Shown in pieces: positions 2,622 to 59,594 of a DNA stretch of 64,000 bases. Origin of the DNA: Bacteroidaceae bacterium. GTDB lineage: Bacteria > Bacteroidota > Bacteroidia > Bacteroidales > Barnesiellaceae_A. Each line of letters starts with the position of its first letter. Position 1 is the stretch's first letter. A program made the translations under genes and the position numbers. The DNA is taken from positions 7,601 through 71,600 of the forward strand of contig JAFXJY010000013.1 of the NCBI GenBank assembly GCA_017531985.1, in the 5' to 3' direction. The notes beneath the pieces are model-generated. The model had not been told where the DNA came from and made no database searches. It saw only the letters and a program-made list of their open reading frames with translations.

Positions 2622-2730
2622 CCAACTTCTATAATTTGCACCGACCTATCATTCATTTGCCATCTGGGATATTTCTTTTGTTCACTTTAACCTATTGGCA
2701 ATCAATCGGAATCGATTTATAGAAGTTTCC
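2622..2730. repeat. Intergenic inverted pair of the AACTTCTATAA motif family
   Basis: gccAACTTCTATAAt at 2622-2634 and TTATAGAAGTTtcc at 2717-2730. The 11-nt cores are perfect reverse complements. Confidence 0.5.
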
Positions 2731-2852
2731 TTACAAAAAATTTGTGTAAAGTTAACAACTTTATTTGATTAAGATATTGCTATCAACTATAATTAACTAT
2801 TACCGTCATTCAAAAAAAATTCAGATAATTCTACTCTCCATCCGTTCCCTTA

Positions 2853-5168
2853 TCAGAAGGGGTATCCTATGGCCAGATGAAGACGAAGGTTTTTCCAGAA
2901 AGAACCATCTATATTATAATAGCCGGAAATACCCGTATCATAAGGGGCATGAATGGGAACACCCACATCGACACGCACAACAAGATAACCGGCAATATCA
3001 TAACGAAGACCTATGCCGGTACCCAAAGCAATATCTCTACCCAGCGAACGAAGCGTGAGCTTCCCTCCGGGACGAAGTGTATCATCTTTCAGCAACCATA
3101 TATTTCCGGCATCGACAAACGCGGCTCCTTGCAAGCCTCCCCAGATGGGGAAACGCAACTCGACATTGGCCTCAAACTTAAAATTTCCCGTTTGATCAAA
3201 GTAACCATTCTCGTCCGAAGCATCAGGACGGTAGCTTCCCGGACCTATCGAGCGAATAGTAAAAGCTCGTATGCTATTGGCTCCACCTATATAAAATTGT
3301 TCGCTATATGGCATCTCTGTCGCATTGCCATAGGCATATCCGGCTCCTAAATAGAGACGCGAGGCGATACTCATGTTGTGTGAAAAATAGTGATAATATT
3401 TTACCTCATTGGTAAGTTTTACAAATTGAGAAAACGGATTCCCGAATATTTTTTTCTCGCTCTTCACCCCACACAACGAATATATTCCATAGAAAATATT
3501 ACCTGCTTCCGAGGCACTTATCTGCCATATCCAGCGATTGTTGCGTTCCTTTTCATATCCGTTATCGTAGGTAAATGTGTACCCTATCATAGGGATGAAT
3601 TGGTCGCGAAAACTCAATGCAATAGCAGGATTTTCCTCCAAAGTCTTATCAAAGTCCTCGGTAGTATGCAACATCTTGGTATACCCCAACTTGAAAGGTG
3701 TAAAGTTGTGCAATGCCGTCGACGAAGTGTGAAATTCGTAGGCGAAAGATGTGTTGAACGAGACCATCCGGAAATAGTGAGGTCGGTTCATGATATTAGC
3801 CCCTAACTGGATACGGGTATTGGATTTCATTCGTCGTAAATGTCGACGTGGACGAGGTCCCAACAAACGAGGGAATGTAAGTGTTCCCGTGGCTCCAAAT
3901 TCGTATGAATTAAACAATGAGGCGTCGCTATTTTTTCCCGTCTGCCATTCATAACTACCGTTGAGCATAACAGATAATTGCTCGCCTCCGCCAAACAGAT
4001 TATTATGAGATATTCCCACTATAAGTCCCGGTCCTATATAACTATTAGACTTCGAGGCAACATTGGCTTCGACCATAAATCCAATAGGCAGTGCATATCT
4101 CAAATCAATATCCACGTCAATCGAATCGCGACCTTGCAACGAGTCGAGCGGGGTGACATCCATTACCATCGATCTATATATACCTAACGATGACAAGTTC
4201 TGCAATGATAAGTTTTGAGCCGATAACGAAAAGGTACGACCGGGACGCAAGGTTATATTACCGGGAAGGAGTCCTCGGCGTATTTTCAAGCCTTCATATC
4301 CACACACATCCATAAACCGATAGGGCAACGTATCGACCGGAGCTTCACCCTCGGGCGGATGCAAACGAACGGTTATCTTTCCGGTCTTGTAACTTCGCAA
4401 TGCATCGGTCGGTGCTGTGGGTGCTATCATCATCCGCAGGTCAACATATCCACTATTACGCATCGTATCTGCTTGATACAAAAGATATTCACTGCGAAAA
4501 TAGTAAAAGCCACTATCTCGCAGCAAGGCAGTAATTCGCTCTCGCTCGGCCACCAACGTATCGGCACAATAACGCTGTCCTTTATACAGCAGTGATTTAT
4601 CACGATGACGCTGTATCATATCGGACAAGGGAGTTGAGTCATTAGGAAAGGATATACTATCGAGCAGGTAGGGCTTGCCTGCCACAACATGGTAACTTAC
4701 AGAAGCCTTCTTGACATCTTTTTCATCATAATTAATATTATAATGAGCCGACGAACTGAAATATCCATTGTTAAATAATATATCCTTGGCCATGCCCACA
4801 CGCAAGTCGGGTCGAACAGTCTGTATCAACACCGGTTCCTTGGCAAAAATACCGTACAACCATCCTTTAACACTCTTGGGATTGGTCGTATACAGGTAAT
4901 TCCATGCCCACAGTTCCGTAGGTATGAATCGGAGGGAATTGGACGAAAATAATGCATTGTTGGGTGGCACTGAAAGACTTTTCTTCACCATGCTCTTTAC
5001 CTCGGGCTGCAATTTTTCTCCATCGATACTCTCTATCTTCATCTCCTTCACACCGGTATATAGAGTCTCGCCATCGCCCAGTCGTCGGGTTGTCGAACAA
5101 GAAATTGATACAACAGCCATCACAATAGCGACAGAAATTGACATGATTCTATATATTAGCCTTCTCAT
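2853..5168 (-). CDS. tamL: Omp85-family outer membrane protein, TamA/TamL-like (lipoprotein variant)
   Basis: 771 aa. The signal peptide ends in the lipobox VVSISC. The C-terminal Omp85 barrel ends in ...LHLAIGYPF. It overlaps the upstream tamB by 4 nt. Confidence 0.8.
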   Translation of the reverse strand: MRRLIYRIMSISVAIVMAVVSISCSTTRRLGDGETLYTGVKEMKIESIDGEKLQPEVKSMVKKSLSVPPNNALFSSNSLRFIPTELWAWNYLYTTNPKSVKGWLYGIFAKEPVLIQTVRPDLRVGMAKDILFNNGYFSSSAHYNINYDEKDVKKASVSYHVVAGKPYLLDSISFPNDSTPLSDMIQRHRDKSLLYKGQRYCADTLVAERERITALLRDSGFYYFRSEYLLYQADTMRNSGYVDLRMMIAPTAPTDALRSYKTGKITVRLHPPEGEAPVDTLPYRFMDVCGYEGLKIRRGLLPGNITLRPGRTFSLSAQNLSLQNLSSLGIYRSMVMDVTPLDSLQGRDSIDVDIDLRYALPIGFMVEANVASKSNSYIGPGLIVGISHNNLFGGGEQLSVMLNGSYEWQTGKNSDASLFNSYEFGATGTLTFPRLLGPRPRRHLRRMKSNTRIQLGANIMNRPHYFRMVSFNTSFAYEFHTSSTALHNFTPFKLGYTKMLHTTEDFDKTLEENPAIALSFRDQFIPMIGYTFTYDNGYEKERNNRWIWQISASEAGNIFYGIYSLCGVKSEKKIFGNPFSQFVKLTNEVKYYHYFSHNMSIASRLYLGAGYAYGNATEMPYSEQFYIGGANSIRAFTIRSIGPGSYRPDASDENGYFDQTGNFKFEANVELRFPIWGGLQGAAFVDAGNIWLLKDDTLRPGGKLTLRSLGRDIALGTGIGLRYDIAGYLVVRVDVGVPIHAPYDTGISGYYNIDGSFWKNLRLHLAIGYPF

Positions 5169-10594: not shown

Positions 10595-10600
10595 GTATGT

Positions 10601-10710
10601 AAACTTCTATAATTCAAGTCTTAAAGAGAGCCAAAAAAAACATCAAGCAAACAAAAAGATTGTTTCCCTTAACGAATGAACTATTATCTGCGGAATATAT
10701 AGGAGTTCCC
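10601..10710. repeat. Intergenic inverted pair of the motif family
   Basis: AAACTTCTATAA at 10601-10612 and TATAGGAGTTCCC at 10698-10710. Confidence 0.4.
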
Positions 10711-11618: not shown

Positions 11619-11887
11619 GAGAACTCCTATAAATTGCTTTGTGATGATTGATGATTTTTTTCTTAAAGTGGATTTTAGACTCTGACCGAATGAGCATAGC
11701 TAGCTATGTGACTGAGATGAAAGATACTAATATGCGAGCGAGAAATATCCAACTCGCTTGAATATTTTTCACAGCGAGCGAAAGTATCTCCGCGGTTTAC
11801 CGCAAAGATACCAAGCAAGAACATCAGGAAAAAGAATATTTCCCTTAACAACCGAATAACGAATCTGTGGAATTGATAGAAGTTCCC
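11619..11887. repeat. Intergenic inverted pair of the motif family
   Basis: GAGAACTCCTATAAATT at 11619-11635 and GATAGAAGTTCCC at 11875-11887. A TTTCCCTTAAC submotif lies nearby at 11841-11851. Confidence 0.4.
11734..11788 (+). repeat. Short direct repeat in a divergent promoter region
   Basis: GCGAGCGAGAAATATC at 11734-11749 and GCGAGCGAAAGTATC at 11774-11788. Confidence 0.5.
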
Positions 11888-11940: not shown

Positions 11941-11948
11941 TATCTTTG
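11941..11948 (+). promoter_or_regulatory. Bacteroidetes -7 promoter box (TATCTTTG)
   Basis: Matches TAnnTTTG, 26 nt upstream of the ATG at 11974. Confidence 0.55.
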
Positions 11949-11973
11949 CATTTTGAGAGAAACAGATTATGAC

Positions 11974-17970: not shown

Positions 17971-18675
17971 CTACACCCTACTGTCGATGCGTATAATGTT
18001 TTCCACCAAGAAAAGATCACGAATATCACTCTTGGCAACTTCTATATCGTCATAATTACTATTCTCACTACGAAGTATTACTTGCGATGGGTCGGGATGG
18101 CGGCGTACATACTTTACCATTCGATAGTCATCAAGCAGAACTACATATATCTGCCCCCAAAAAATAAGATTAGGATTACGAACCTCTCGAATGGCTATCA
18201 GGTCACCATTTCCTATTACCGGAGCCATACTGTCACCACTGACTCGCACAATACAACAATCAGGATGAATAGCCGGCATATTGATAGTTCCTATTACTTG
18301 CTCGTCGGCAAACATTCTCTCTCGTGCCATTCCACCCGCTGTTACGTCAAGATCGTACACTCTTGCTCCACCTATTGTACTTCCGGTCATATCCAAGTCA
18401 CCAACCGGAACTGTTACAGTGGGTAATTGGTTGTTTCTGGCATTTCTTTGCCACATATCGCCTTCGCCCGTCAAAAGCCACTCTTTCGACACACCCAACT
18501 CTACCACTACTTTGTTCAAGAGGGTATCCCCAAGGGGCAGTTTTCCTTTCATGTGTTTTGAGAAATTCGATGCATCCATACCTATACGCTCGGCAAAGGC
18601 TATCTGTTTTAACCCCATCGATTTCATCAACTCTTTGATACGTTCTATTCTTGCTTCGTTGCTCATACACCTCAT
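17971..18675 (-). CDS. XRE-HTH / S24 (LexA/CI-like) self-cleaving repressor
   Basis: The N-terminal HTH is GLKQIAFAERIGMDASNFSKHMKG. The C-terminal S24 peptidase motif is VSGDSMAP...GDLI with a downstream Lys. The start could instead be the ATG at 18666. Confidence 0.8.
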   Translation of the reverse strand: MRCMSNEARIERIKELMKSMGLKQIAFAERIGMDASNFSKHMKGKLPLGDTLLNKVVVELGVSKEWLLTGEGDMWQRNARNNQLPTVTVPVGDLDMTGSTIGGARVYDLDVTAGGMARERMFADEQVIGTINMPAIHPDCCIVRVSGDSMAPVIGNGDLIAIREVRNPNLIFWGQIYVVLLDDYRMVKYVRRHPDPSQVILRSENSNYDDIEVAKSDIRDLFLVENIIRIDSRV

Positions 18676-18719
18676 TTTAAAGGTAAATAAACCTCTCTAT
18701 AATGGTTAATTTACCATTG

Positions 18720-18727
18720 CAAAGGTA
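18720..18727 (-). promoter_or_regulatory. -7 promoter box (TACCTTTG on the minus strand)
   Basis: The plus strand reads CAAAGGTA, about 45 nt upstream of the S24 repressor ATG. Confidence 0.55.
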
Positions 18728-35978: not shown

Positions 35979-36000
35979 ATAAATACTATTAAGAAACTGG

Positions 36001-36074
36001 CTCTTCAGGTTGGACTTGAACCAACGACCCTCTGATTAACAGTCAGATGCTCTAACCGACTGAGCTACTGAAGA
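36001..36074 (-). tRNA. tRNA-Asn (anticodon GTT), copy 2
   Basis: Identical in sequence to copy 1 and separated from it by a 22-nt spacer. Confidence 0.9.
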
Positions 36075-39881: not shown

Positions 39882-39891
39882 GTGTTTTTAG

Positions 39892-39909
39892 GAAACTTCT
39901 AAAAGTTTC
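39892..39909. repeat. 18-nt near-perfect palindrome related to the motif family
   Basis: GAAACTTCTAAAAGTTTC has one mismatch at the centre and lies 11 nt upstream of the start of the barrel gene. Confidence 0.5.
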
Positions 39910-40000: not shown

Positions 40001-42847
40001 CTACCTCTTCACAATACGCAATACATCATTTCCACAACGTACAATATAAATACCTTGCTGCAAATGACCTACCTCGACATTGTTATACCCCGAGGCCACC
40101 CTCACACCCTGCAAGTTGTACACCTCTATGCATTCACTATCGGTGCTTTTTATCAAATTGCCGGCATAGACAAGTGCGTGAGTCACAGGCAAAATATGAT
40201 GACTGGTAGAGTGCTTCAACATCAGTGCATAGAATCGTATGGCACTATTTCCTGAGTAGATATAGTAAGTACCATCACTCGTCAATGTGCATTCTATCAT
40301 GTCGCTCGACGTGCGACTCACTTCGCTCACACCATCATATATGACTACTTCACGACCTTTCTCACCGGCATTGCTGTATACGATGACTCTATCTCCGGCT
40401 TGGGCTGTCAGACTCAACGACTGACTGCCGGTACTTCCACCACCTCCTGTATCGTAGCAGTGATTAAAGACACTGCCATCATCAAACGTTTTTTCGGCTT
40501 GTGCAAAACGTGCCTTAGTGCCATATATAACCGTCAATCCATCGTATGTAAAGGTCGATGTAAACTCCTCGGGGATAACTCCAGCCGATGCCCAGTTGTC
40601 AAATATCCACGAGTGTGTTGTTGCATCTGGCTCATCCGGTACAATGGGTGCAGCACTCATTTCAATGCGATAGTAACGCAAGCCCTCACTTCCTCGCACC
40701 GTAATGCTTGTTACACCCGAAGGTATGGTGTATGACGCAGAGGTCGAAGTGGTCGAAGCGGTTTCACCTATCGGCAGCTCATCGACAAGTAACTGACGAG
40801 TTCCCTTACTATTGCTCGTGTGTGAGAACGTAAATGTAAGTTTCTGTCCCTCCTGCACCGGAATATTCATGCTCAATGCTCCTTGAATGTAACCGCTACC
40901 CGAGGTAGAGGGATTGATGCGAACATCGTTGGTAAACGCAATAGCTTCCGTCTCTACAAAACCCAACTCGGTTGCTTGTTCAAAAGTATGCTCATATCTT
41001 CCATCGCCCAATCCACTCCATATATCGTCATTTTCACTCAGTTTATTGCGACTGGCAGTACTCCATGTTGTGAAATCCCAGGTCTTGCCATCGGCAAACT
41101 GGCTATCGGCTTGCGTAAGTTCGAGTGTATAATAGGCTATTGTACCGTCCTCGGCTGTTACAGTAAAAGTTGCATCGGCAGGAAGCTCTGCTATATCGGG
41201 TATCATCATGTCACTGACGACAGCTGCCGCAAAACGTGGCACTGCAACAACTTGTATGGCTGTCGCACTCGAAGGTAATCGGTAGGCATAGAGATCATGC
41301 GACAATTTAGTAGCCTTAGCCCCGTTAACTGTAAGTTTGGCGAGCGACGTATCACTACTCAATTCCCGCGTAATATGCACGGTATAAGTAAGAGTTGCAC
41401 TACCATCGACCGATGTAACTATAATAGCAGCATCGGCAGGAAGCTCTGATATATCAGTAGGAGCATCTATCAATACGTCTGCTCGAATGTTCGATGTTGA
41501 TGTCGTTATCTGTATATCGGCAGCATCGGCAGGAAGCTCTACATAATAATTGTAAACACCCTCCTCAACAATCATGACAATATCATTTACCATAAAACTT
41601 ACCAGTGTTGCATCCGAGGGATCGGAACTGGTACTTGCACCTATGGTCAGAGGGTCACTTAAAGTAGCACCCGCACCCGTATTGACATGAGTCAGCGTAG
41701 CCGGGACATCAAGAGCCGGATACACAGTATATCGATAGGGAACATTTACAGTTCCTTTGTTGGTAGCCGTAAAGTCCTCGACAAAAACATTGCCACTGAA
41801 ATTATAGGCTTTACTACCACTCTCCGAGAAGATTTTCTTAACACCCTTCTCGAAATAATTATTTTCAATAAGAAACTCACTATTCTTGCGAGCATTAATT
41901 CCCGCCGAGTTACCGGGACAATTGTAATAATTATTAATCAAGTGAATCGTGCCAAAACGAGCCATAGGCATGCGTTGATCGCATCCCTCCCCCCAAATGT
42001 TATTAGCCCAAGTTATGTTTAAGTTATTCTCACCCTGAGCCGAGGCACTGTCACTTCCTCCCACAAGATTACTATTCATGTGGTCGTAGGCACGCTCGGT
42101 ATAAGAGAAGGTACACCACGAGATTGTTACGAAATCGCTCTTGACCGTTACATCAAGGTTACCATCAATACCATCGGTCAGATCGCAGTGATCGACCCAT
42201 ATATGATGAGAACCATTTATGATCGACACCAAGTCATCACCACCCACATCGATGGGACCGGGACCTACAAGTTGCATATTGCGAAGTATTATATTCTCAC
42301 ACCCCGAGATATAAAAAATACCGGCATCACGATACGCCTCATCGGGGTCATTCAGCAAGTTGATAAGAGTCTGGCGTGTACCATATTCTCGCTCCTCGCC
42401 CACGCTTTGACCATTGCTCAGCGTACCCCCTCCTCCGGTCGAACTCATATCCTTGACACCGGCCTTATCGAGAGCAGCTATTATCTCTTCGGTTACATAA
42501 AATTCGGTGCATAGACGTGCATTATTGACACCTACAATAGTCTTGTTACTCAAATCTTTCAATTCCATTGTTGCCGATACAACGAAGTCGCCGTTGACAC
42601 CATCAAGAATAATCACATCATTATTCTTGATAGCATTAACAATGGTCGAACGCATATCTCCTCCTGTACTGACAAGCGTCACACTACTACCATCACCTCC
42701 ACCCACAAGGTCATAATCATCACCCGAGGTCATAGATGAACAGACAGCCCACCCCATAGGGGCATTGGCATCATACTCCGACAACTGTGCATGAGCCGAC
42801 AAAATAGCAGCACATACTATCAATAAAGATATATAGAATTGTTTCAT
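40001..42847 (-). CDS. Secreted pectate lyase (PL1-like) with repeated beta-sandwich domains and a T9SS C-terminal sorting domain
   Basis: Signal peptide. The parallel beta-helix region is ...SHHIWVDHCDLTDGIDGNLDVT...NIWGEGCDQRMPMARFG. Three ...ELPADA... repeat modules follow. The C-terminus is EVYNLQGVRV...GIYIVRCGNDVLRIVKR. Confidence 0.78.
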   Translation of the reverse strand: MKQFYISLLIVCAAILSAHAQLSEYDANAPMGWAVCSSMTSGDDYDLVGGGDGSSVTLVSTGGDMRSTIVNAIKNNDVIILDGVNGDFVVSATMELKDLSNKTIVGVNNARLCTEFYVTEEIIAALDKAGVKDMSSTGGGGTLSNGQSVGEEREYGTRQTLINLLNDPDEAYRDAGIFYISGCENIILRNMQLVGPGPIDVGGDDLVSIINGSHHIWVDHCDLTDGIDGNLDVTVKSDFVTISWCTFSYTERAYDHMNSNLVGGSDSASAQGENNLNITWANNIWGEGCDQRMPMARFGTIHLINNYYNCPGNSAGINARKNSEFLIENNYFEKGVKKIFSESGSKAYNFSGNVFVEDFTATNKGTVNVPYRYTVYPALDVPATLTHVNTGAGATLSDPLTIGASTSSDPSDATLVSFMVNDIVMIVEEGVYNYYVELPADAADIQITTSTSNIRADVLIDAPTDISELPADAAIIVTSVDGSATLTYTVHITRELSSDTSLAKLTVNGAKATKLSHDLYAYRLPSSATAIQVVAVPRFAAAVVSDMMIPDIAELPADATFTVTAEDGTIAYYTLELTQADSQFADGKTWDFTTWSTASRNKLSENDDIWSGLGDGRYEHTFEQATELGFVETEAIAFTNDVRINPSTSGSGYIQGALSMNIPVQEGQKLTFTFSHTSNSKGTRQLLVDELPIGETASTTSTSASYTIPSGVTSITVRGSEGLRYYRIEMSAAPIVPDEPDATTHSWIFDNWASAGVIPEEFTSTFTYDGLTVIYGTKARFAQAEKTFDDGSVFNHCYDTGGGGSTGSQSLSLTAQAGDRVIVYSNAGEKGREVVIYDGVSEVSRTSSDMIECTLTSDGTYYIYSGNSAIRFYALMLKHSTSHHILPVTHALVYAGNLIKSTDSECIEVYNLQGVRVASGYNNVEVGHLQQGIYIVRCGNDVLRIVKR

Positions 42848-44259: not shown

Positions 44260-44431
44260 TTTCGGCGGCGAAATAATCCACCCCAAACACTCCTTAAAGA
44301 GTAGGAATAGTATTATATCGTTGCAAAGTAATGTATAAAGAGGTGATAAGGTTGGTGCATCGGCACATTATTTTTAGGTAATTATATACAATTCTACACT
44401 AAATAAATTTGTGTTTGTGTAAAATTCTTCT

Positions 44432-44439
44432 TATCTTTG
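44432..44439 (+). promoter_or_regulatory. -7 promoter box (TATCTTTG)
   Basis: Matches TAnnTTTG, 22 nt upstream of the ATG at 44461. Confidence 0.5.
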
Positions 44440-44460
44440 TTCTATAAATAAGAAAGAACG

Positions 44461-45378
44461 ATGATAACAAAGAAATTCAAATCCGTTTTAGAACTATTTG
44501 AGGTATTCTCAACAGAACAAGCCTGTATAGACCATTTGGAACAATTACGTTGGAATGGCAACGTGGTAAGTCCATTTGATTGTACTTCAAAAGTCTATAA
44601 GTGCAAAGATAATAAATATCGTTGTAAAAACACAGGAAAATACTTTAATGTTAAGACAAATACTTTATTTGATAATACTAAAATCCCGTTGCGTAAGTGG
44701 TTTGCTGCTATATGGCTTGTAACTTGTCATAAAAAGGGTGTTTCTTCTCTTCAATTAAGCAGAGATATTGATGTTACACAAAAAACAGCTTGGTTTATGC
44801 TACAACGTATTCGCAACTGTTTCGGCATCGAGAATAATAACGACCTAACTAATACCGTTGAACTTGATGAAACGTATGTTGGTGGCAAGAATAAAAATCG
44901 ACACAACAATAAGAAAATAGAAAATTCACAAGGACGTAGCACAAAGGATAAAACACCCGTATTCGGTATGGTTGAACGAAAGGGTAAACTTAATGCAAAG
45001 GTCGTTACCGATACCAAATGCGAAACCCTAACAAAAGAAACCATCAAATTTGTAAAGGATGCTTTGATTTGCACTGATGAATGGTGGGTTTATAATTCCA
45101 TTAAAAAACTATTCAAACGACACGAGATTGTAAATCATAAGTGTAACGAATATGTGCGTGGCGATGTTTACACCAATACTATCGAAGGTTTTTGGTCGTT
45201 GCTAAAACGTGGTATTATAGGTATATACTATTTTACCTCTAAACAACACTTGCAACGCTATGTTGATGAGTTTGTTTTTAGGTACAATACTCGCAACTAT
45301 TCCGAATGTGGAAGATTTAATTTACTTTTGCAAAATACTGAACATCGTCTAACATATAAAGAATTGATATATGGATAA
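44461..45378 (+). CDS. IS1595-family (ISXO2-like) DDE transposase
   Basis: FSTEQACIDHLEQLRWNG..., IPLRKWFAAIW, ELDETYVGGK, CTDEWWVY and NTIEGFWSLLKR are the family blocks, and the DDE residues appear present. Confidence 0.82.
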   Translation: MITKKFKSVLELFEVFSTEQACIDHLEQLRWNGNVVSPFDCTSKVYKCKDNKYRCKNTGKYFNVKTNTLFDNTKIPLRKWFAAIWLVTCHKKGVSSLQLSRDIDVTQKTAWFMLQRIRNCFGIENNNDLTNTVELDETYVGGKNKNRHNNKKIENSQGRSTKDKTPVFGMVERKGKLNAKVVTDTKCETLTKETIKFVKDALICTDEWWVYNSIKKLFKRHEIVNHKCNEYVRGDVYTNTIEGFWSLLKRGIIGIYYFTSKQHLQRYVDEFVFRYNTRNYSECGRFNLLLQNTEHRLTYKELIYG

Positions 45379-46504
45379 CTATTTGGAAAAATCTCAAAAT
45401 TTCCTATTCTACTCGGATAATGACGGAAAAATAAATGTGCAAGTGATTGTGGATAGTGCTAAAGAAACTATTTGGACTACACAAAAGGGTATGGCAGAAA
45501 TATTTGGTGTAGGTATTCCTGCTATTAGTAAGCATCTATCTAATATTTTCGAGGAGAAAGAACTGCTTGAAAATTCAGTTATTTCCAAAATGGAAACAAC
45601 TGCGACAGACGGGAAAAAATATATAACTACATTCTACACCCTTGATGCCATAATTGCTGTTGGTTATCGTGTAAATAGTTATCAAGCAACCCAATTTAGA
45701 ATATGGGCAACACGCATATTAAAGGAGTATATGATAAAAGGTTTTGCATTAGATGACGACAGATTAAAGCAAGGCAAACATTTATTTGGTAAAGATTTTT
45801 TCAAAGAACTTATTGAACGAATCCAAGAAATTCGTGCTTCAGAAAGAATGTTCTATGAAAAAATTACTGATATATTCAAAGATTGTAGTATTGACTATGA
45901 CCCCAATTCACCAATTGCAAAAGAATTTTATGCTTCAATGCAAAATAAATTTCATTATGCTTCCCACCAACATACTGCACCTGAAATTATATATGAACGT
46001 GCGGATTCCACAAAACCATATATGGGATTAACAAGTTGGAAAAATCAAAAAAGTGGAGGAAAAATTTATAAATCAGATGTAACAATAGCCAAGAACTATT
46101 TAAAAGAAGATGAAATAAAGGCGTTAAATAAACTCGTAAATATGTTTCTTGACCATGCAGAACGATTAGCTGAAAAAGGGAAAGGGACTTACACTATGGC
46201 TGATTGGGTAAAAAGATTAGATATGTTCTTAAACTTTAACGAATATCCTATTCTTACAAATGCTGGTAAAGTGAAACGTGATGTTGCAAATCGATTCGCT
46301 GAATCCGAATATAAGAAGTTTAGAGTAATACAAGATAGGGAATATAAATCAGATTTCAACAAATTAATCGAAGCCAGCCATAACGGGTTACCCAATGAAT
46401 GCGATAAGAATGATGGAAGCAACTTATCACCTTTAGACCAATCACTAAACATAGCCCTTAACTACAACCCAAACAAAGATAAAAACCAAGAGCCGACTGA
46501 ATAA
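45371..46504 (+). CDS. RhuM-family protein
   Basis: DGKINVQV....ETIWTTQKGMAEIFGV, YTLDAIIAVGYRVNS.QATQFRIWATRILKEY and IQEIRASERMFYEKITDIF are characteristic RhuM blocks. It overlaps the transposase stop by 8 nt. Confidence 0.82.
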   Translation: MDNYLEKSQNFLFYSDNDGKINVQVIVDSAKETIWTTQKGMAEIFGVGIPAISKHLSNIFEEKELLENSVISKMETTATDGKKYITTFYTLDAIIAVGYRVNSYQATQFRIWATRILKEYMIKGFALDDDRLKQGKHLFGKDFFKELIERIQEIRASERMFYEKITDIFKDCSIDYDPNSPIAKEFYASMQNKFHYASHQHTAPEIIYERADSTKPYMGLTSWKNQKSGGKIYKSDVTIAKNYLKEDEIKALNKLVNMFLDHAERLAEKGKGTYTMADWVKRLDMFLNFNEYPILTNAGKVKRDVANRFAESEYKKFRVIQDREYKSDFNKLIEASHNGLPNECDKNDGSNLSPLDQSLNIALNYNPNKDKNQEPTE

Positions 46505-46516
46505 ATCGGCTCTTGG
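46486..46516. terminator. Bidirectional terminator spanning the rhuM stop codon
   Basis: CCAAGAGCCGA / TCGGCTCTTGG form a perfect 11-bp stem. An A5 run precedes it on the plus strand, which reads as a T-run on the minus strand. Confidence 0.7.
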
Positions 46517-46543
46517 TACATAATACGATTAAGTATTTTTGTT

Positions 46544-46912
46544 TTACTCAAAGTCATAATCTTTTTCTAATAAGGCACTTTGATAACGAGCATTTTTAAC
46601 AAGGGTTCTATATCCTTTTATGATTGGTAGCAAAATAAGGTTTTCTATTGCTACAACTAATGATACTATAAAGATAATAGGAATTACGTCGTTATATGGT
46701 TCAACAAAAGCACCTACAAAAGTTACAAATGCTAATATTAAACTTATAATACTAAACACAAAGCATAATTTAGATAGTATGGTTAAACCATATATACCCG
46801 AACCATCGTAATTAACTTTGATTTTTTCTTTAGTACCATCAATGTTTTTTTGACTTTCTTTCTCACTCATAATAGTTTGTTCTTCTTTGTTTGTAAATAC
46901 ATCTTGTTCCAT
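46544..46912 (-). CDS. Small membrane protein with two TM helices, family unknown
   Basis: The ATG at 46912 (MEQDVF...) avoids overlap with the upstream gene. The two hydrophobic helices are LCFVFSIISLILAFVTFVGAF and IPIIFIVSLVVAIENLILLPII. The alternative track start is 46957. Confidence 0.5.
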   Translation of the reverse strand: MEQDVFTNKEEQTIMSEKESQKNIDGTKEKIKVNYDGSGIYGLTILSKLCFVFSIISLILAFVTFVGAFVEPYNDVIPIIFIVSLVVAIENLILLPIIKGYRTLVKNARYQSALLEKDYDFE

Positions 46913-46922
46913 AATAATAATT

Positions 46923-47255
46923 TTAATCCCAACCGTTTTCATTGAAATATTCGTCAATCATATCTAAGTCTCTTTTTTGTTCTTGTGAACCTTGATAGTG
47001 TATTTGTTTATCTCCTTCAGGAGATGTATAGCCACCACCTTGCATATATTCCCTTCTCGCATTTCTTTCTATATCTGCTGCACCATCCATACCTGCGTCA
47101 CGTAAATTTTGTTCTCTATCGATAGATTCCCAATAGTTCTCATCTTCAACATATCTTGAAGAAGAACTACTATAATTGCTATCGCAACTAATACAAGAAT
47201 TAAAGGAAATGCAACACAAAATGGCTACACTAGCTGACAGTAAAATTTTTTGCAT
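46923..47255 (-). CDS. Small lipoprotein, family unknown
   Basis: The ATG at 47255 gives MQKILLSASVAILCCISFNSC, a signal peptide with a lipobox. The longer track ORF would run through a hairpin followed by a T-run at 47315-47342. Confidence 0.5.
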   Translation of the reverse strand: MQKILLSASVAILCCISFNSCISCDSNYSSSSSRYVEDENYWESIDREQNLRDAGMDGAADIERNARREYMQGGGYTSPEGDKQIHYQGSQEQKRDLDMIDEYFNENGWD

Positions 47256-47313
47256 AATAATTTGTTTTATAGTTTGTGCAATATTGCCTTTGTTTGTTGT
47301 GGCAGTAACTACA

Positions 47314-47513
47314 CAAAAAAACGTAGGGCTACTACCGTACGTCATCAAGGCTCACCACAAGCCAACCTACAAACGGAGTGTCCCTACGAATATCGCAGGT
47401 ACTCAACAGTAGGTATTATGCTCGTGTTCATTCGAGGTGGTGATTCTGATGACGTTGAGCAAATATTTTCAAAAGGTCTGCAATAGAGCTTCGCTTATTG
47501 CGTTGCAAATATA
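47314..47513 (-). promoter_or_regulatory. Candidate structured leader or attenuator (or an sRNA of about 185 nt) upstream of the lipoprotein operon
   Basis: On the minus strand there is a -7 box TATATTTG (47506-47513) and a hairpin followed by U7 (47315-47342). The upstream heptamer CGUAGGG (47382-47388) is perfectly complementary to the hairpin's 3' arm. A 9-bp long-range pairing links 47339-47347 with 47447-47455. Confidence 0.35.
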
Positions 47514-47515
47514 GC
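47496..47515 (+). repeat. Direct repeat copy 1 flanking the PanA cassette
   Basis: The sequence is TATTGCGTTGCAAATATAGC. Confidence 0.55.
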
Positions 47516-47577
47516 ACAAATTATTAAACCAAAGTGTTAAAATATAGTCCAAGTTTTGTATGTATATATTTAGTTAG

Positions 47578-47585
47578 TACTTTTG
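47578..47585 (+). promoter_or_regulatory. -7 promoter box (TACTTTTG)
   Basis: Matches TAnnTTTG, 21 nt upstream of the ATG at 47606. Confidence 0.5.
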
Positions 47586-47605
47586 TGTATTAAAATAATG
47601 TGTAT

Positions 47606-48124
47606 ATGAAAACTAATTTGGGAATAAATGACATAGCAGATTTTGTGTTATTATACTGCTTTGAAAACGAAATTTCAATAAGTCCATTGAAATTACAGAA
47701 GTTATTGTATTATATACAGGCTTGGCATTTAGTGTACTTTGATAAACAATTATTGTTTGAAGAAAAGCCCCAAGCTTGGGTAAATGGTCCCGTATATCCA
47801 ACTATATATAATAGATTTAAGGGTATATTAAGATATTCCGAGTTAAACAAAGAAAATACCGGTTTGTCATCAACAACATTAGAGGATAAACAGCAAATAT
47901 TGGATTTAGACAAAGAACAATATGAGTTTTTAGACTCAATATTCCATCACTATGGTATGATGGAACACGATAGACTTGTTTTTTTGACACACGCAGAATT
48001 ACCTTGGAGTGAAAAACGGGATGGGCTAATGCCTTTTGAGCCATCCGATAACGAAATTTCATTTGAAACGATGTTTAATTATTACAATCAAAGAATGATT
48101 AAAAACAGGGAAAAGAAACAATGA
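47606..48124 (+). CDS. Panacea/DUF4065 (SocA/GepA-like) domain protein, putative PanA-type antitoxin
   Basis: The motifs are SPLKLQKLLYYIQAWHLVYFDKQLLFEEKPQAWVNGPVYPTIYNRF and, later, LTHAELPWSE. The track start at 47600 is GTG, so I prefer the ATG at 47606. Confidence 0.8.
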   Translation: MKTNLGINDIADFVLLYCFENEISISPLKLQKLLYYIQAWHLVYFDKQLLFEEKPQAWVNGPVYPTIYNRFKGILRYSELNKENTGLSSTTLEDKQQILDLDKEQYEFLDSIFHHYGMMEHDRLVFLTHAELPWSEKRDGLMPFEPSDNEISFETMFNYYNQRMIKNREKKQ

Positions 48125-48642
48125 GTTTTGGTGGAATCGACTATGATGCAGATGAGTTAAATGAATTGCATCGCAGATATGAAATAGGAGATAGAATCAT
48201 TAATAATGACATTTATATATCAAAAACAATATCACCAGTAATATGCTATAGCCATATAGATTTATCAGGAAGCGAATATTCATTTAATAAAGTTGAATTT
48301 AAGGAAGATGTCTGTTTATATTTAGAAAAGATTAAGGCTTTGTGCGACAATTCTATTGATGAATTATCAAGTAAAGACTCAAAAAGAGAATGGCATTTGT
48401 TTCCAACCAGAGGGAAAAAAATTATAACTGAATTAAAAAGACATTTTAACGTCAAAAAAATAGACCAAGATAGAGTTCCCGAAATTTATCATTTTGCATT
48501 ATATACAGACCAAGATAAAGCTGATAAAGAAACGGGGAAACGTTCTCCAAGAATACATTTTATTGTGGGAAATCATGGTATGCTATACCCTCTATTCTAC
48601 GACCCATACCACGAAATAAATTCTATGCCAGAAAACAGGTAG
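48121..48642 (+). CDS. Unknown 173-aa protein coupled to the Panacea gene, candidate toxin
   Basis: Its ATG overlaps the upstream stop (ATGA). It has no TM helix or signal peptide, and I recognise no family. Confidence 0.5.
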   Translation: MSFGGIDYDADELNELHRRYEIGDRIINNDIYISKTISPVICYSHIDLSGSEYSFNKVEFKEDVCLYLEKIKALCDNSIDELSSKDSKREWHLFPTRGKKIITELKRHFNVKKIDQDRVPEIYHFALYTDQDKADKETGKRSPRIHFIVGNHGMLYPLFYDPYHEINSMPENR

Positions 48643-48645
48643 TTG

Positions 48646-48666
48646 TATTGCGTTAGCAAACATAGC
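48646..48666 (+). repeat. Direct repeat copy 2 flanking the PanA cassette
   Basis: TATTGCGTTAGCAAACATAGC differs from copy 1 by a 1-nt indel and one substitution. Confidence 0.55.
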
Positions 48667-48701
48667 CTCTGTGTAAACTCGTATATAATTACCTGTTTTT
48701 A

Positions 48702-54976: not shown

Positions 54977-55741
54977 TTATTGTTTTTTCTGCGGATACTT
55001 GCGGAAGAGACTACCCCATTTGAGTCTGATGACACCAAATACGGCCTCGCTGAAGATGCCTCCGCTCATTTTGCTCTCGCCGAGTACGCGATTGATAAAG
55101 ATGATGGGAACCTCTTGTATGTTGAAGCCACACATCTTGGCTGTGAATTTCATCTCTATCTGGAATGCATATCCTTTGAAACGTATCTTGTCCAACTCTA
55201 TGGTCTCCAATACTTCGCGACGGTAGCATACAAATCCGGCAGTGGTATCGTGTATTTTCAGTCCGGTTACGATGCGAACATACTTCGAGGCATAATAAGA
55301 CATAATCACACGTCCCATAGGCCAGTTGACCACATTGACTCCTGTCACATACCGCGAACCTATCGCTACATCGGCTCCATTATCGCGACAAGCTGCTTTC
55401 AGTCGCAACAGGTCGGCAGGATTGTGCGAGAAGTCGGCATCCATCTCAAATATATAATCATATTTATGCTCAATAGCCCACTTAAATCCGGTTATATAGG
55501 CCGTTCCTAAACCTAACTTTCCACTGCGTTCGAGCAAATGTAGACGACCGGGAAATTCACCTTGCAATTCCTTTACGATAACAGCTGTTCCATCAGGCGA
55601 ATTATCGTCTATCACCAATATATCGAACATCTCGGGCAGATTAAACACTGCTCGAATGATATTTTCTATATTCTCTTTCTCATTGTAGGTGGGTATAAGC
55701 ACCACACTGTCATGAACTATGGGGAGATGTTCTTGTGACAT
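54977..55741 (-). CDS. Polyprenol-monophosphomannose synthase (Dpm1-like GT2)
   Basis: [31 protein letters not shown]. Confidence 0.85.
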
Positions 55742-55774
55742 ATATTTATAGAATTATCGATTTCAATTATAATA

Positions 55775-55883
55775 GGGGACTTCTACACATTCCATAGATT
55801 AATAATACGTTGATTACCGGAAACATTCTGCTTCGCTTTTACTTATTATTGTAACCATAACAAATCAACCGATAGAAGTTCCC
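55775..55883. repeat. Intergenic element bounded by an inverted motif pair, third copy of the 55-nt module
   Basis: GGGGACTTCTAC at 55775-55786 and GATAGAAGTTCCC at 55871-55883. Inside, GATTAATAAT...CCGGAAACATTC aligns with the copies at 35599 and 58414. Confidence 0.5.
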
Positions 55884-55952
55884 TATACGGAATGGAGAGT
55901 GAACGAAATAATGCTTTCCTAAATTATCCTTCACTTCACACCCTATATTGCA

Positions 55953-55960
55953 CAAATATA
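55953..55960 (-). promoter_or_regulatory. -7 promoter box (TATATTTG on the minus strand)
   Basis: The plus strand reads CAAATATA. If this promoter is used, the inverted-repeat element at 55775-55883 lies in the 5' UTR of the GT2-pyrC transcript. Confidence 0.45.
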
Positions 55961-56102
55961 GAGATAATTTTGATTACAATAATACACAGGAGGAATAAAA
56001 TTATATTTTGTCACAATTTTTTACATCCCGATACCATTTTCCTATAAGCGGTCATCAGCTATCACTCGGTATTTGTTTTTGACATACACACAGAAGGTTT
56101 AC

Positions 56103-56134
56103 AAAAAAGGGCGTGTCAACTCAATGACACACCC
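56103..56134 (-). terminator. Rho-independent terminator of the ferredoxin gene
   Basis: On the minus strand GGGTGTGTCA...TGACACGCCC is followed by TTTTTT. Confidence 0.7.
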
Positions 56135-56166
56135 ATCTTCATGTCGTTTGTCGACGTGCTTGGGGA

Positions 56167-56334
56167 TTAGCCCTCTACGATAGCATCGTTGGGACATACA
56201 CCGGCACAAGTACCGCAATCGAGGCATTGATCGGGATCGATTTTGTAGATATCACCTTCCGAAATTGCTCCTACGGGGCATTCACCGATACAAGAACCGC
56301 AAGCAACGCAGTTGTCTGTAATAACGTAAGCCAT
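56167..56334 (-). CDS. 2x[4Fe-4S] ferredoxin, 55 aa, not in the supplied ORF track
   Basis: My own translation is MAYVITDNCVACGSCIGECPVGAISEGDIYKIDPDQCLDCGTCAGVCPNDAIVEG. It contains two CxxCxxCxxxCP motifs. Confidence 0.85.
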   Translation of the reverse strand: MAYVITDNCVACGSCIGECPVGAISEGDIYKIDPDQCLDCGTCAGVCPNDAIVEG

Positions 56335-56380
56335 GGTTTAAATTTTTTAAATGTATAAATATTAGGTTATATAACTCCGA

Positions 56381-56388
56381 CAAAGGTA
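56381..56388 (-). promoter_or_regulatory. -7 promoter box (TACCTTTG on the minus strand) upstream of the ferredoxin gene
   Basis: The plus strand reads CAAAGGTA, 47 nt upstream of the ATG. Confidence 0.55.
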
Positions 56389-56437
56389 AGATACTTTTTT
56401 GCTTCTACAAAATAAATAGTCGTATTTTTACACAGAA

Positions 56438-56467
56438 AATGCGGTTGCTTTTTCTTGCAACCGCATT
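56438..56467 (-). terminator. Rho-independent terminator of the Thr/Tyr-rich protein gene
   Basis: AATGCGGTTGC / GCAACCGCATT form an 11-bp stem, followed on the minus strand by a U-rich tail. Confidence 0.7.
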
Positions 56468-56515
56468 TAATTTCAACATTATCAGCTACTAAATCAGTCT
56501 TATTTAATAAGTGTC

Positions 56516-57661
56516 TTAATAGGGGTAGTACTGTCCTACTACGCGATAACCAATCCCACCATATAGAGCCACCTCATAATAGTAATATCCATTGTAGTAG
56601 TAGGCAGGATATCCATTGTAGTACACATAACTTACTCCGTAATTGGGAAGATAAGGCACGACCATTCCCATCAATGGTGCTACTACCTGGAAGTGTGTAC
56701 CATAATTACGATAGTAAGTTCCATCGTAATAGTAGTAGAACTTGTTGTTGTATATCAATGTTTCATATCCAACGGGCAACGACAACAGCGAAAGTCCTAA
56801 GGGTGCTGCTACGACCTGATATACTCCATTGACCAGCGTATGATAACAGCAGTCGTAAAAGTAGTAGGTAAGACCACCCAATGTGTAGTGATGGGCATGT
56901 GGTGGCGGAGGTGTGTGAAGATGATAATCCAAAGGACAGCCATGACCATGTGGAGGTGGTACGAAGTTGTATCCACGCGGTGGACGATGGTTGGGATGAT
57001 AACCGGCAGGGGGAGGTGTGCGATGATCGTACTGTACATGCGGCTTCTCTTGATAGGGGCGGTTATCTCTCGATGCATGATGATTATCGGTTACCATCGA
57101 CGACTGACCGGCATTGGATGTGGGCCGATTATTGCGTTCGACTATCGTAGCATTACTATTACCTATGGTCGAACCACGACGATTGGCGGTCGCACTTGTA
57201 CTCGATGTAGTTGTAGTTGTCGTGATCGTTTCGCGACGGCCGGTAGTTGTGGTAGTAGAACTCGGCTTATTGGTGGGGGTTGTAGTCGTACCTCGACGAT
57301 TGGTAATAGTCGTAGTTGACTTGGTGTTTGTAGTAGGCGTTGCATCACGACGTGTGGTTGTAACATTAGGTGTTACATTCTTTTGCGTTGAGGTGCTACG
57401 ATTATTGGTTGTCGTTGACACTGTCGATGAATTACGACGAGTAGTGGTCGTTGTTGTGCTACTGCCGGAGACAGTAGTACGATTGGTACTCTGTCGTACA
57501 GTTGAGCCACTACCGTTTCCGGTACTCTCTCCACCACGACTATTGGTGGTGGTGGCACGCGATGAATTTTCGCTTCTGTTGCCTCGCTGTGCATCGGCTA
57601 TATTTATTGTCCCTAAGGCAAGTATCAGGGCGAGGCTTAATGTTAGTATTCTCTGTCTCAT
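56516..57661 (-). CDS. Secreted low-complexity protein: a Thr/Ser/Arg/Asn-rich N-terminal half, a His/Pro-rich linker and a Tyr-rich C-terminal domain
   Basis: Signal peptide MRQRILTLSLALILALGTINIADA, then about 170 aa of T-runs punctuated by RR, then PPPHGHG/HTPPPPHAHH, then FYYYYDGTYYRNYG...YYYNGYYYYE. It has its own terminator. Confidence 0.6.
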   Translation of the reverse strand: MRQRILTLSLALILALGTINIADAQRGNRSENSSRATTTNSRGGESTGNGSGSTVRQSTNRTTVSGSSTTTTTTRRNSSTVSTTTNNRSTSTQKNVTPNVTTTRRDATPTTNTKSTTTITNRRGTTTTPTNKPSSTTTTTGRRETITTTTTTSSTSATANRRGSTIGNSNATIVERNNRPTSNAGQSSMVTDNHHASRDNRPYQEKPHVQYDHRTPPPAGYHPNHRPPRGYNFVPPPHGHGCPLDYHLHTPPPPHAHHYTLGGLTYYFYDCCYHTLVNGVYQVVAAPLGLSLLSLPVGYETLIYNNKFYYYYDGTYYRNYGTHFQVVAPLMGMVVPYLPNYGVSYVYYNGYPAYYYNGYYYYEVALYGGIGYRVVGQYYPY

Positions 57662-57835
57662 AGCTTCATGTATTAAGTTGGTAATACAATGTTCTTTTCA
57701 TTAAGACTAATGGATAATAAAAAAGTTTAAGGGAACTTCTCTATATATACTACAAAAAGACCGATGCACTCAACACCCATCGAGTACACCGGCTGCAATA
57801 CTAAACGGTATAAAATTCAAAACAGATTCTAAATT

Positions 57836-58396
57836 CTATACTGTAAGAATTTCTTTCTCCTTGGCTGCAAATAACTCATCGATGCGTTTCATCATGCGGT
57901 CATGCAACTTCTGTACCTCATTCTCACCGTCTTTCGATACATCTTCGGGCATTCCATTCTTAACGGCTTTCTTCAACCCTTCGATTGCATCTCGGCGTGC
58001 GTTGCGAATGCTCACCTTGGCATTCTCTACTTCGTTTTTCGATTGTTTTACAAGGGCTTTGCGACGCTCTTCGGTCAATGGTGGAATAGAAATGCGTATA
58101 ACCTCACCATTGTTCTCGGGGGTAATACCCAACTCCGAGTCAATAATAGCCTTCTCTATTATGCGGAACATCGACTTCTCCCACGGTGTGATTACAATGG
58201 TGCGTGCATCGGGCACCTGCACATTGGCAGCACCACTAATGGGCATCATCGAGCCATAATAATCGACACGAATATTATCTAGTAATTTAGGACTGGCCTT
58301 TCCGGCACGAATGTGAGCAAGTGTTTCGTCCAAAAATTCCACTGTTTGCTCCATTTTTTTCTCGGCTGCATCGAGATAAGTTTTTACATCTTCCAT
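57836..58396 (-). CDS. frr: Ribosome recycling factor
   Basis: 186 aa. The pattern ...[24 protein letters not shown]...ITPWEK...[19 protein letters not shown] is canonical for Frr. Confidence 0.95.
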
Positions 58397-58413
58397 ATAT
58401 TATTTCTATTTAT

Positions 58414-58610
58414 GGGAACTTCTATAAGCTCCACTGATTAATAATTCATTAGTTATAGGAAACTTTCGGTCTGTCAGTCTTGGCTTTTTTTCTTGGTATA
58501 TTCCCATTCCTACCTTCATCACACCATTTGCGATGTCTTGGGGGTCATAATCCATATCTACTCAATGAAAAAATGCATTAATCATAACAACACAATAGAT
58601 ATAAGTTCCC
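58414..58610. repeat. Element bounded by an inverted motif pair that fills the pyrH-frr spacer, second copy of the 55-nt module
   Basis: GGGAACTTCTATAA at 58414-58427 and GATATAAGTTCCC at 58598-58610. Confidence 0.5.
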
Positions 58611-58624
58611 TTCGATTTTGCTTA

Positions 58625-59335
58625 TCAATATACATAAGTTCCGATGGACTCACCCATCATAACTTTTCGCAGATTACCCACCGTATCCATGTCAAACACA
58701 ATGATGGGCAGATTGTTCTCTTTGCACAACGTTGTAGCTGTGAGATCCATCACTTTAAGCCCACGAGTATATATCTCATCGTAGCTAATACTGTCAAACT
58801 TGGTAGCTGTGGGGTCTTTCTCGGGATCGGCTGTATAGATGCCATCTACACGCGTTCCCTTCAACATCACATCGGCTTCTATCTCAATACCTCGCAAGGC
58901 CGAACCTGTATCGGTGGTAAAGAAAGGATTGCCTGTTCCACACGACATAATGGCTATTTCGCCCCGTTGCATTGCGTCGATGGCTCGCCACTTGCTGTAA
59001 TGCTCGCCGATGGGATGCATGTCAATAGCGGTAAATACCCGCGACTTCTGACCCTCTCCCTCCAAGGCCGAACTTAATGCAAGGCTGTTGATGACAGTTG
59101 CCAACATACCCATTTGGTCGCCCTTTACTCGATCAAATCCTTTGGTAGCACCGCTCAGACCGCGAAATATATTACCGCCTCCGATAACGATACCTATTTC
59201 TACTCCCATATCGGCAATCTCCTTGATTTGCTTAGCATACTCTCCGACACGCTTGGCATCTATTCCATATTGTTGGTCGCCCATCAATGACTCGCCACTG
59301 AGTTTGAGCAATATTCGTTTAAATTTTCTCTCCAT
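58625..59335 (-). CDS. pyrH: UMP kinase
   Basis: KRILLKLSGE..., VIGGGNIFRG, GTGNPFFTTD. Confidence 0.95.
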   Translation of the reverse strand: MERKFKRILLKLSGESLMGDQQYGIDAKRVGEYAKQIKEIADMGVEIGIVIGGGNIFRGLSGATKGFDRVKGDQMGMLATVINSLALSSALEGEGQKSRVFTAIDMHPIGEHYSKWRAIDAMQRGEIAIMSCGTGNPFFTTDTGSALRGIEIEADVMLKGTRVDGIYTADPEKDPTATKFDSISYDEIYTRGLKVMDLTATTLCKENNLPIIVFDMDTVGNLRKVMMGESIGTYVY

Positions 59336-59414
59336 GATTATCTCTGTTTACTACCACAAATATAAAATGAATCCATTTATGATGCAAATAAAACTATGAT
59401 TTTTATATAGGTAG

Positions 59415-59594
59415 GTTCTATAAATTAGGTTGAGTTGATTTTGAAGCTTATTGTGTGGAGATTTCCAATTTCTTATAAAGGCACAATGCGAGCATTGTAA
59501 CTAAGTGAAAATTAGAAATATACTACAATAAATTCAAAAGAGACCGAAATAGGAGCTACCGACAACTATCAATTTATCTACTAATTTATAGAAC
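59415..59594. repeat. Perfect 14-nt inverted repeat pair, a variant of the motif family
   Basis: GTTCTATAAATTAG at 59415-59428 and CTAATTTATAGAAC at 59581-59594. Confidence 0.55.

Follow-up and report, generated by a model that had tools for sequence, protein, structure and literature searches.

The recurrent intergenic motif GGGAACTTCTATAA in a 64-kb stretch of a Bacteroidaceae bacterium contig (JAFXJY010000013.1), referred to here as the window, constitutes the terminal inverted repeat in a family of dispersed repeats with GGGAAC-type ends, which is the subject of this analysis and which we call family 1. A related GTTCTATAAATTAG family, family 2, is represented in the same stretch. We consider it highly probable (roughly 85%) that both are non-autonomous transposable elements inserted between genes and resembling MITEs (miniature transposable elements bounded by inverted repeats), an assignment that is based on their terminal inverted repeats, their small non-coding units, the target duplications, the dispersed copies and the empty sites in relatives. 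The sequences of both families are undescribed, and the kind of element, the MITE, is already known; a literature string search for the motifs returned only chance primer matches, and BLAST of one member of each family (elements D and G, below) against a plasmid collection gave no match. The source species is an uncultured gut Bacteroidales that occurs in many ruminant and other gut metagenomes; its relatives are carried as 'Bacteroidaceae bacterium' metagenome-assembled genomes (MAGs), and the Frr protein of the window is ~80% identical to Muribaculaceae sequences.

When up to two mismatches are allowed, the 14-mer GGGAACTTCTATAA matches the window 14 times, against 0.37 ± 0.60 times (maximum 2) in 100 dinucleotide-preserving shuffles, and 13 of the 14 matches are intergenic, that is, they lie in the 9.96% of the window outside the curated gene list. 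The remaining match (18034-18047, plus strand) lies inside an S24-peptidase/helix-turn-helix coding gene and is probably a chance occurrence outside family 1. An earlier reading of the letters without database searches (the sequence-only reading) had described the motif as recurrent and intergenic, which these counts confirm, and all seven of its inverted pairs were recovered to within 1-3 nt. Three of the single copies that it listed are real single arms (36352-36365, 39891-39909 and 57731-57745), whereas a fourth, at 18689-18703 (AAACCTCTCTATAA), is only a weak gapped resemblance. The linked submotif TTAAGGGAA is present at 10664, 11840, 35864 and 57727, as had been proposed, but the copy placed at 11511 is really at 11515 and position 35594 reads TTAAAGGGAA; a further copy lies at 61731.

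The similarity between copies reaches past the 14-mer. Alignment of the bounded elements, oriented by their better-conserved arm, revealed a conserved module of ~85 nt that is common to six of them and lies at one end of every form (GGGAACTTCTATAAATTCCACAGATTAATAATTCATTAGTTAnnGGAAACATTCTTTTTGTTTGC). A profile of this module (nhmmer) recovers exactly these six copies, with E values from 6e-15 to 4e-20, and elsewhere finds only short arm-like pieces. Family 1 thus comprises six full copies of 109-270 nt, along with relics, in 64 kb, with the consensus end GGGAACTTCTATAAATTCCACAGATTAAT... and arms in which 11-17 of 18 positions are paired in each of the six elements. Three are short forms of ~110 nt: element A (2621-2730, plus strand, 110 nt, E 6e-15) is placed between an Omp85-family stop codon and the start of an AsmA/DUF748 gene, element B (10599-10710, minus strand, 112 nt, E 5e-18) between convergent PepSY-like and acyl-ACP thioesterase genes, and element E (55775-55883, plus strand, 109 nt, E 8e-17) in the 5' region of a GT2 glycosyltransferase gene. 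The long forms (197-270 nt) are element C (11619-11887, minus strand, 269 nt, E 8e-19) in the divergent thioesterase/Omp85-family spacer, element D (35599-35868, plus strand, 270 nt, E 4e-20) between tRNA-Asn and a haloacid dehalogenase (HAD) hydrolase gene, and element F (58414-58610, plus strand, 197 nt, E 5e-19), which fills the pyrH-frr gap; their interiors are weakly alike (C-D, z 5.6; C-F, z 4.8).

The relics comprise one truncated copy and two solo arms. Because the arm at 36352 is accompanied by an inner box, ACATAGCTTGC..CGGTCAGA, that is also found in C, it represents a truncated copy (36290-36365, minus strand, upstream of an S41 peptidase gene), and its local alignment to C scores z 4.3-4.7. 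The solo arms lie at 39891-39909 (GGAAACTTCTAAAAGTTTC, plus strand, 9 nt upstream of the ATG at 39881) and at 57727-57745 (TTAAGGGAACTTCTCTATA, plus strand, between the frr terminator and a DUF6515 gene). The truncated copy stands on one side, and element D on the other, of two identical tandem tRNA-Asn(GTT) genes (35904-35978 and 35998-36074, 96 nt start to start). Family 1 is old, decaying and fixed in this species: its modules have a mean pairwise identity of 61%, its arms have mutated independently, and truncated and solo arms are among its remains. Further copies are scarce. Among 185,579 GTDB species representatives, a 26-nt family-1 pattern has a single match, in a sheep-rectum Bacteroidaceae MAG (L009), and it has none in the metagenomes of the Joint Genome Institute (JGI); no further copy lies in 10 kb of same-species sequence beyond the left edge of the window, and viral contigs hold no family-2 ends and four family-1 17-mer matches that lack the module and look like chance.

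The seventh pair, which the sequence-only reading had placed at 59415/59581 as a 14-mer variant of the same motif, is a real pair of a different kind. It bounds element G (59410-59599, plus strand, 190 nt, profile E 1e-42), located between the pyrH promoter and a tetratricopeptide repeat (TPR) gene, whose arms are 23-nt inverted repeats (GGTAGGTTCTATAAATTAG / GGCATGTTCTATAAATTAG) that are 91% complementary and which contains no ~85-nt module; it is a copy of family 2, the better preserved of the two. The family-2 inverted repeat is GGGAGGTTCTATAAATTAGG and its consensus end GGGAGGTTCTATAAATTAGGTCGAG; ends of the two families have the core TTCTATAAATT in common, and 15 of their first 17 bases are identical. 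With the left end as its sole anchor, a scan across metagenome contigs located family-2 ends at 73 loci, from which we collected ~50 complete copies, mostly of 184-200 nt; flanks and gene context were scored on 50 complete copies and structure on an alignment of 41. Copies resembling G are found on many different metagenome contigs at ~85% identity, and in four DNA metagenome runs G is covered to a depth of 270-870, which is 8-35 times the baseline (20-35).

Comparison of orthologous intergenic regions, which the sequence-only reading had recommended, yielded empty sites for B, C, F and G, all of which are missing from the syntenic positions of relatives with anchor proteins of 85-97% identity. 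The pyrH-frr spacer that holds F is 228 nt long, but it measures 23-30 nt in the related loci L010, L011, L012 and L015 (Frr 90-97% identical); in L013 and L014 (Frr 96%) the called pyrH and frr genes overlap and F is absent, and contigs of related organisms from three metagenome runs join 58397 to 58622-58625 with 18-25 nt between. The spacer around B, from the thioesterase stop to the PepSY stop, is 191 nt here and 72-84 nt in loci L089-L092, and the filled site TATAC-[B]-ATACAAAAACG corresponds in L089 to a single ATAC before the same terminator hairpin. The divergent spacer around C is ~480 nt here versus 124-199 nt in the same four loci, and both its flanks (GATATAAC and TTGTA) and the Omp85 promoter box TATCTTTG are conserved in relatives. 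G is absent upstream of the pyrH promoter in L015, L010 and L011. In ~126 kb of sequence from relatives we detected neither a family-1 module nor a family-2 end; the elements are restricted to one lineage and fixed there. No related-species contig was found that spans the site of A, as this region is rearranged in relatives.

The flanks of the elements carry the trace of insertion most clearly in family 2, where 25 of 50 copies are bounded by a perfect 4-bp duplication and 7 more by a 3-of-4 match, compared with 7.6% in a mismatched-partner control. The duplicated 4-mers are TTAA (6 copies), TATA (5), TTTA (4), TAAA (3), TTAT (2) and others. G itself has perfect flanks (TATA/TATA), as does B in family 1 (ATAC/ATAC, with the single ATAC at the empty site). 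The elements, at 109-270 nt, contain no open reading frame (ORF) of at least 100 aa, and the indels among copies are not frame-preserving; dispersed copies outside the window are the family-1 element of L009 and the 73 family-2 loci. The MITE half of the REP/MITE-like interpretation offered by the sequence-only reading is thus borne out by whole-element homology, terminal inverted repeats, empty sites and target duplications. We infer that a transposase encoded elsewhere would act in trans, recognizing GGGA..TTCTATAAATT at both ends, would excise the element by a cut-and-paste route, and would paste it into a short AT-rich target that becomes duplicated as 4 bp.

Several observations weigh against this assignment. 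The target duplications of the other family-1 copies are mostly degenerate: those of A (TTAT/TTAC) and E (AATA/TATA) agree at 3 of 4 positions, those of F (CGAA/ATAA) and C (TCAT/TTGT) at 2 of 4, and those of D (TTAAA/TTAAA) fit 5 bp rather than 4, a picture that is in keeping with the age of the family. The family-1 copies are fixed in all same-species contigs seen, which indicates no recent movement, and beyond the ~17-nt end the similarity of family 1 to family 2 is not significant in a profile search (best E 0.34). A limited search for a parent element turned up no transposase beside any of the 73 family-2 ends, the ORFs beside unusual ends being housekeeping genes, and tblastn with InsH of the insertion sequence (IS) IS5 and with the IS1595-type transposase of the window gave no match in the fetched loci. 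The one transposase of the window, this IS1595-family gene (44461-45378), belongs to an island whose inverted repeats are different. The strong orientation bias of the elements relative to start codons, described below, is not predicted for a neutral selfish MITE.

Bacterial MITEs, for example MITEAba12 of Acinetobacter and those of Porphyromonas gingivalis, have the same short non-coding build, with terminal inverted repeats, target duplications and dispersed intergenic copies, and the same presence/absence variation among relatives; the short forms look like derivatives of the longer ones by internal deletion. Unlike typical MITEs, the families described here have no parent insertion sequence that we could find, and one defined end is biased to just upstream of starts. 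Correia elements of Neisseria (also termed Neisseria miniature insertion sequences, NEMIS, or Correia repeat enclosed elements, CREE) are similarly MITE-like: they measure 100-200 nt and end in inverted repeats. Co-transcription with their neighbors is frequent, and their ends then form a long RNA stem that is cut by RNase III (PMC3049150, PMC2229807). They can alter the expression of the adjacent gene. Their sequence is nevertheless unrelated, their duplication is TA whereas that found here is 4 bp and AT-rich, and the host phylum here, Bacteroidota, is not known to rely on Shine-Dalgarno pairing. The enterobacterial repetitive intergenic consensus (ERIC) or intergenic repeat unit (IRU) elements are transcribed palindromic repeats in operons with an orientation-dependent effect on mRNA (PMC3049150). 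ERIC elements differ in being ~127 nt long, in having another sequence and in using TA targets, and the orientation effect proposed here is deduced from the distribution of copies. IS5 makes 4-bp duplications at the target YTAR, whereas those observed here are TTAA, TATA, TTTA, TAAA, TTAT, GTAA and others. The 16-bp ends of E. coli IS5 (GGAAGGTGCGAATAAG, read from NC_000913) begin with GG, as do the ends here, and agree with the family-2 end at 10 of 16 positions and with the family-1 end at 8 of 16. An IS5-like element might be a relative of the missing parent, which we offer as a lead only.

The elements have a preferred placement with respect to genes. For family 2, 26 of 50 copies have the ATG of an ORF of 100 or more codons 2-55 nt beyond their right end (...ACTAATTTATAGAACATCCC), compared with 5 of 50 for the left end, and in about 17-20 copies the right end lies 2-16 nt before a genuine-looking start; many of the starts, such as MDITILGIESSCD and MFIVLEGLDGAGK, can be recognized as true ones. 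As the scan was anchored on the left end only, it could not have biased the orientation of the genes. Several copies exactly fill an operon gap, with the upstream stop 0-17 nt from the left end and the ATG 2-16 nt from the right. Examples of right-end placement among loci L016-L088 are L027:8841-9219, L067, L036 and L053. In all 7 of 7 divergent regions the right-hand gene is 5-36 nt away and the left-hand gene 98-398 nt. Family 1 behaves likewise, the module end being 9-37 nt from the downstream ATG in A (37 nt, ATG at 2583), D (9 nt, ATG at 35589), E (33 nt, ATG at 55741) and F (17 nt from the frr ATG, with the pyrH stop 14 nt from the element); for L009 the distance is 15 nt. Both solo arms (39891 and 57731) have the same orientation toward their genes as the full copies.

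By eye, no outward promoter of the form TTTG...TAnnTTTG was seen in the gene-proximal end of either family, and a generic sigma-70 scan of the elements remained at background level. Bacteroidetes-type -7 boxes (TATCTTTG, TACCTTTG, TATATTTG) lie at 11942-11949, 18720-18727, 55953-55960 and 59352-59359 and are conserved in relatives where checked; that at 55953-55960 is the TAnnTTTG box (TATATTTG) upstream of E. These positions put E downstream of its gene's promoter and C and G upstream of theirs. The box at 11942-11949 also implies that the annotated TTG start of the Omp85 gene at 11935 is too early, the true start likely being an ATG near 11975.

The two families differ when examined as RNA. 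Paired cells make up 79.6% of the family-1 arms within the same element and 80.7% with swapped partners, 411 of 500 shuffles score at least as high, and every departure of a single arm from the consensus stays uncompensated. The short forms have no inner structure in common, and neither strand is consistently more stable on folding. The lack of arm covariation speaks against selection for an RNA stem, or for paired operators, in family 1, and the long-range RNA stems envisaged by the sequence-only reading find no support there; they gain substance in family 2, where the test for arm covariation that it had proposed gave a strong signal. The 41 aligned copies adopt a rod fold of 50 pairs, 23 of which show changes on both sides, with 98.5% of cells paired in the 19-nt terminal stem. 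Across the rod 96.6% of cells are paired, compared with 88.6% in shuffles, and the covariation score is 0.269 versus 0.120; none of 500 shuffles reaches any of five measures, and slid controls stay at or below 0.14. These tallies count sequences rather than events, and subfamilies have variants in common; templated repair of quasi-palindromes can also mimic compensatory change. The structure was predicted on the strand that it favors, on which the inner helices hold 79 G-U against 12 A-C cells. Of the two strands, the one in the sense of the right-hand gene has the greater stability in 40 of 40 copies, its consensus folding at -45.4 kcal/mol compared with -29.5 kcal/mol for the opposite strand. 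A 55-nt bulge on the 3' side of the rod carries a nearly invariant unpaired box, CAAAAGCGACCGAAAT (alignment columns 133-148, window 59529-59544 in G). For family 1, a metatranscriptome contig covers 58445-58610, inside F, in strand-less data.

The elements may therefore be considered as RNA, and may act in mRNA leaders. Those located in leaders or operon gaps would probably influence the downstream gene at the level of processing, stability or translation, as do Correia/NEMIS and ERIC elements, although we are less sure of this than of their mobile origin. The ~19-bp terminal stem would take in the 20 nt before the start codon, and cleavage of this stem, by analogy with that by RNase III in Correia elements, would be one way in which the downstream gene could still be translated. 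We put forward only tentatively, and with more doubt than conviction, that copies survive best when they stand in sense orientation within a leader or operon gap, and that they act there as RNA. A broader alternative, compatible with a MITE origin, holds that the elements are primarily functional mobile RNA modules, in which a leader or intercistronic rod controls processing (e.g. through RNase III cutting of the ~19-bp stem), stability or translation. The strong covariation of family 2, the concentration of its G-U pairs on one strand, the uniformly greater stability of its sense strand, the invariant unpaired box and the RNA contig inside F are all in its favor, as is the placement rule, seen in family 2 (a right end that abuts starts and is nearer the right-hand gene in every divergent region) and repeated in family 1 by A, D, E, F, L009 and both solo arms. 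It has to contend with a family 1 devoid of arm covariation, inner structure in its short forms and strand preference, with downstream genes that have no function in common, and with copies that are also located downstream of genes or, as with B, between convergent ones. Moreover, the covariation is inflated by subfamilies and open to mimicry by repair, the RNA contigs are directionless, and Rfam covariance models identified only three tRNAs at gathering score in the whole window and nothing relevant at E <=1 over 55700-59760. We regard this alternative as possible but unlikely. A more specific proposal is more doubtful still: that these are mobile, sense-oriented RNA leader modules, kept mainly where an end abuts a start or fills an operon gap, whose rod and CAAAAGCGACCGAAAT bulge act on the message. 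Under this proposal they might serve as a cistron-uncoupling processing site or a translation-control element.

Other explanations start from the arms rather than from the fold. A transcription-factor or alternative-sigma site, paired and perhaps belonging to an envelope regulon, would fit neighbors such as two Omp85-family genes, the AsmA/TamB-like gene, the S41 protease and GT2 genes, and the motif contains GGAACTT, which we take to resemble the -35 box of sigma-E-type promoters. The sigma-E-like idea was dropped because the gene-proximal arm points away from its gene and the orthologous genes in relatives are without sites. Frr, the HAD hydrolase and the tRNA neighborhood are a poor fit to an envelope regulon, and no theme is common to the neighboring genes, which also include DUF6515. 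The operator pairs suggested by the sequence-only reading are likewise at odds with a variable arm spacing of 95-256 nt, with ~85 nt of adjoining inner sequence that is homologous among copies, and with the absence of the whole unit from relatives that have the same genes, so that regulatory sites of either kind are extremely unlikely. The elements are also intergenic, palindromic and multi-copy, as are repetitive extragenic palindromic (REP) sequences and the REPINs built from them, which are moved as single-stranded hairpins by REP-associated tyrosine transposases (RAYTs, IS200/IS605-like). REPIN foldbacks are conserved with compensatory changes, as is the family-2 foldback. However, 4-bp duplications are present here and IS200/IS605-type insertion is not known to make any, the target is variable rather than a fixed tetranucleotide, the units are 110-270 nt long with an asymmetric interior instead of 20-40-nt palindromes, and a scan of 20 window ORFs turned up no RAYT-like gene; we therefore judge the REP side of the earlier interpretation, which was not borne out, very unlikely.

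Inverted repeats spaced 95-256 nt apart near gene starts in a Bacteroidales genome further call to mind invertons, in which a recombinase flips a promoter-bearing segment, as in the phase variation of Bacteroides capsule loci; each arm is itself a quasi-palindrome, GGAAnTT-N4-AAnTTCC being its own reverse complement at 14 of 18 positions. Such switching is scarcely credible here. A single orientation was found in 8 of 8 same-species contigs and in the contigs of four DNA runs over E-F-G, and over A, in assemblies and contig sets that drop rare variants, and no opposite-strand joint was observed at family-1 arms. No canonical TAnnTTTG promoter was read in the sequence between the arms, some copies occupy a convergent spacer (B) or the inside of the housekeeping pyrH-frr pair (F), and at 6-7 per 64 kb the elements are far denser than known invertons. 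Relatives lack the entire unit with its arms, and target duplications flank it.

As plain MITEs, the elements account for long spacers such as that between pyrH and frr (228 nt, versus 18-30 nt in relatives), which is of value for annotation; they break metagenome assemblies at repeats, and they mark a lineage-specific burst in uncultured ruminant-gut Bacteroidales. Compared with this ordinary MITE identity, the start-codon placement and the sense-strand fold are the more interesting part. If these reflect function, the elements would constitute a natural mobile leader cassette in Bacteroidota and offer a way into how a ~19-bp stem at the initiation region is tolerated, or put to use, by translation initiation and operon processing. 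To our knowledge, Bacteroidota do not rely on Shine-Dalgarno pairing, and leader modules in such a phylum, if true, would amount to a portable rewiring of post-transcriptional control.

The elements may also sit at rearrangement junctions. The block that follows the Omp85 gene (AsmA-like to Cob adenosyltransferase and DUF2807; window 250-2853) is arranged or oriented differently in L089 and L091, with element A at one junction and, near the other, a decayed family-2-like relic (L098:20410-20518) with tRNA genes. Beside A, at 2741-2749, two contigs of run X12 meet with ~9 nt in common and each runs into unlike sequence, which suggests a strain-specific insertion of another repeated element. When L012, whose Frr is 97% identical, is compared with window 57650-58660, the two are identical downstream of frr, solo arm and all, but L012 has no F and its pyrH differs at the 3' end. 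This suggests that F-bearing and F-free lineages recombined at a junction inside frr.

Two further features of the window lie apart from the families. A 4.3-kb low-GC island (44376-48694, GC 0.32-0.35) between aroK and an NAD kinase gene is bounded by 24-nt inverted repeats (AGGTAATTATATACAATTCTACAC / GTGTAAACTCGTATATAATTACCT, at 44376-44399 and 48671-48694) and looks like a passenger-carrying transposon; it contains the IS1595-family transposase gene noted above, a RhuM-family gene (45371-46504), two small ORFs without assignment, and a SocA/Panacea antitoxin-like gene (47600-48124) whose partner is of 173 aa. At 41143-41540, repeats of ~258 nt that are 78-89% identical lie inside a 948-aa pectate-lyase-like gene and are probably repeated protein domains.

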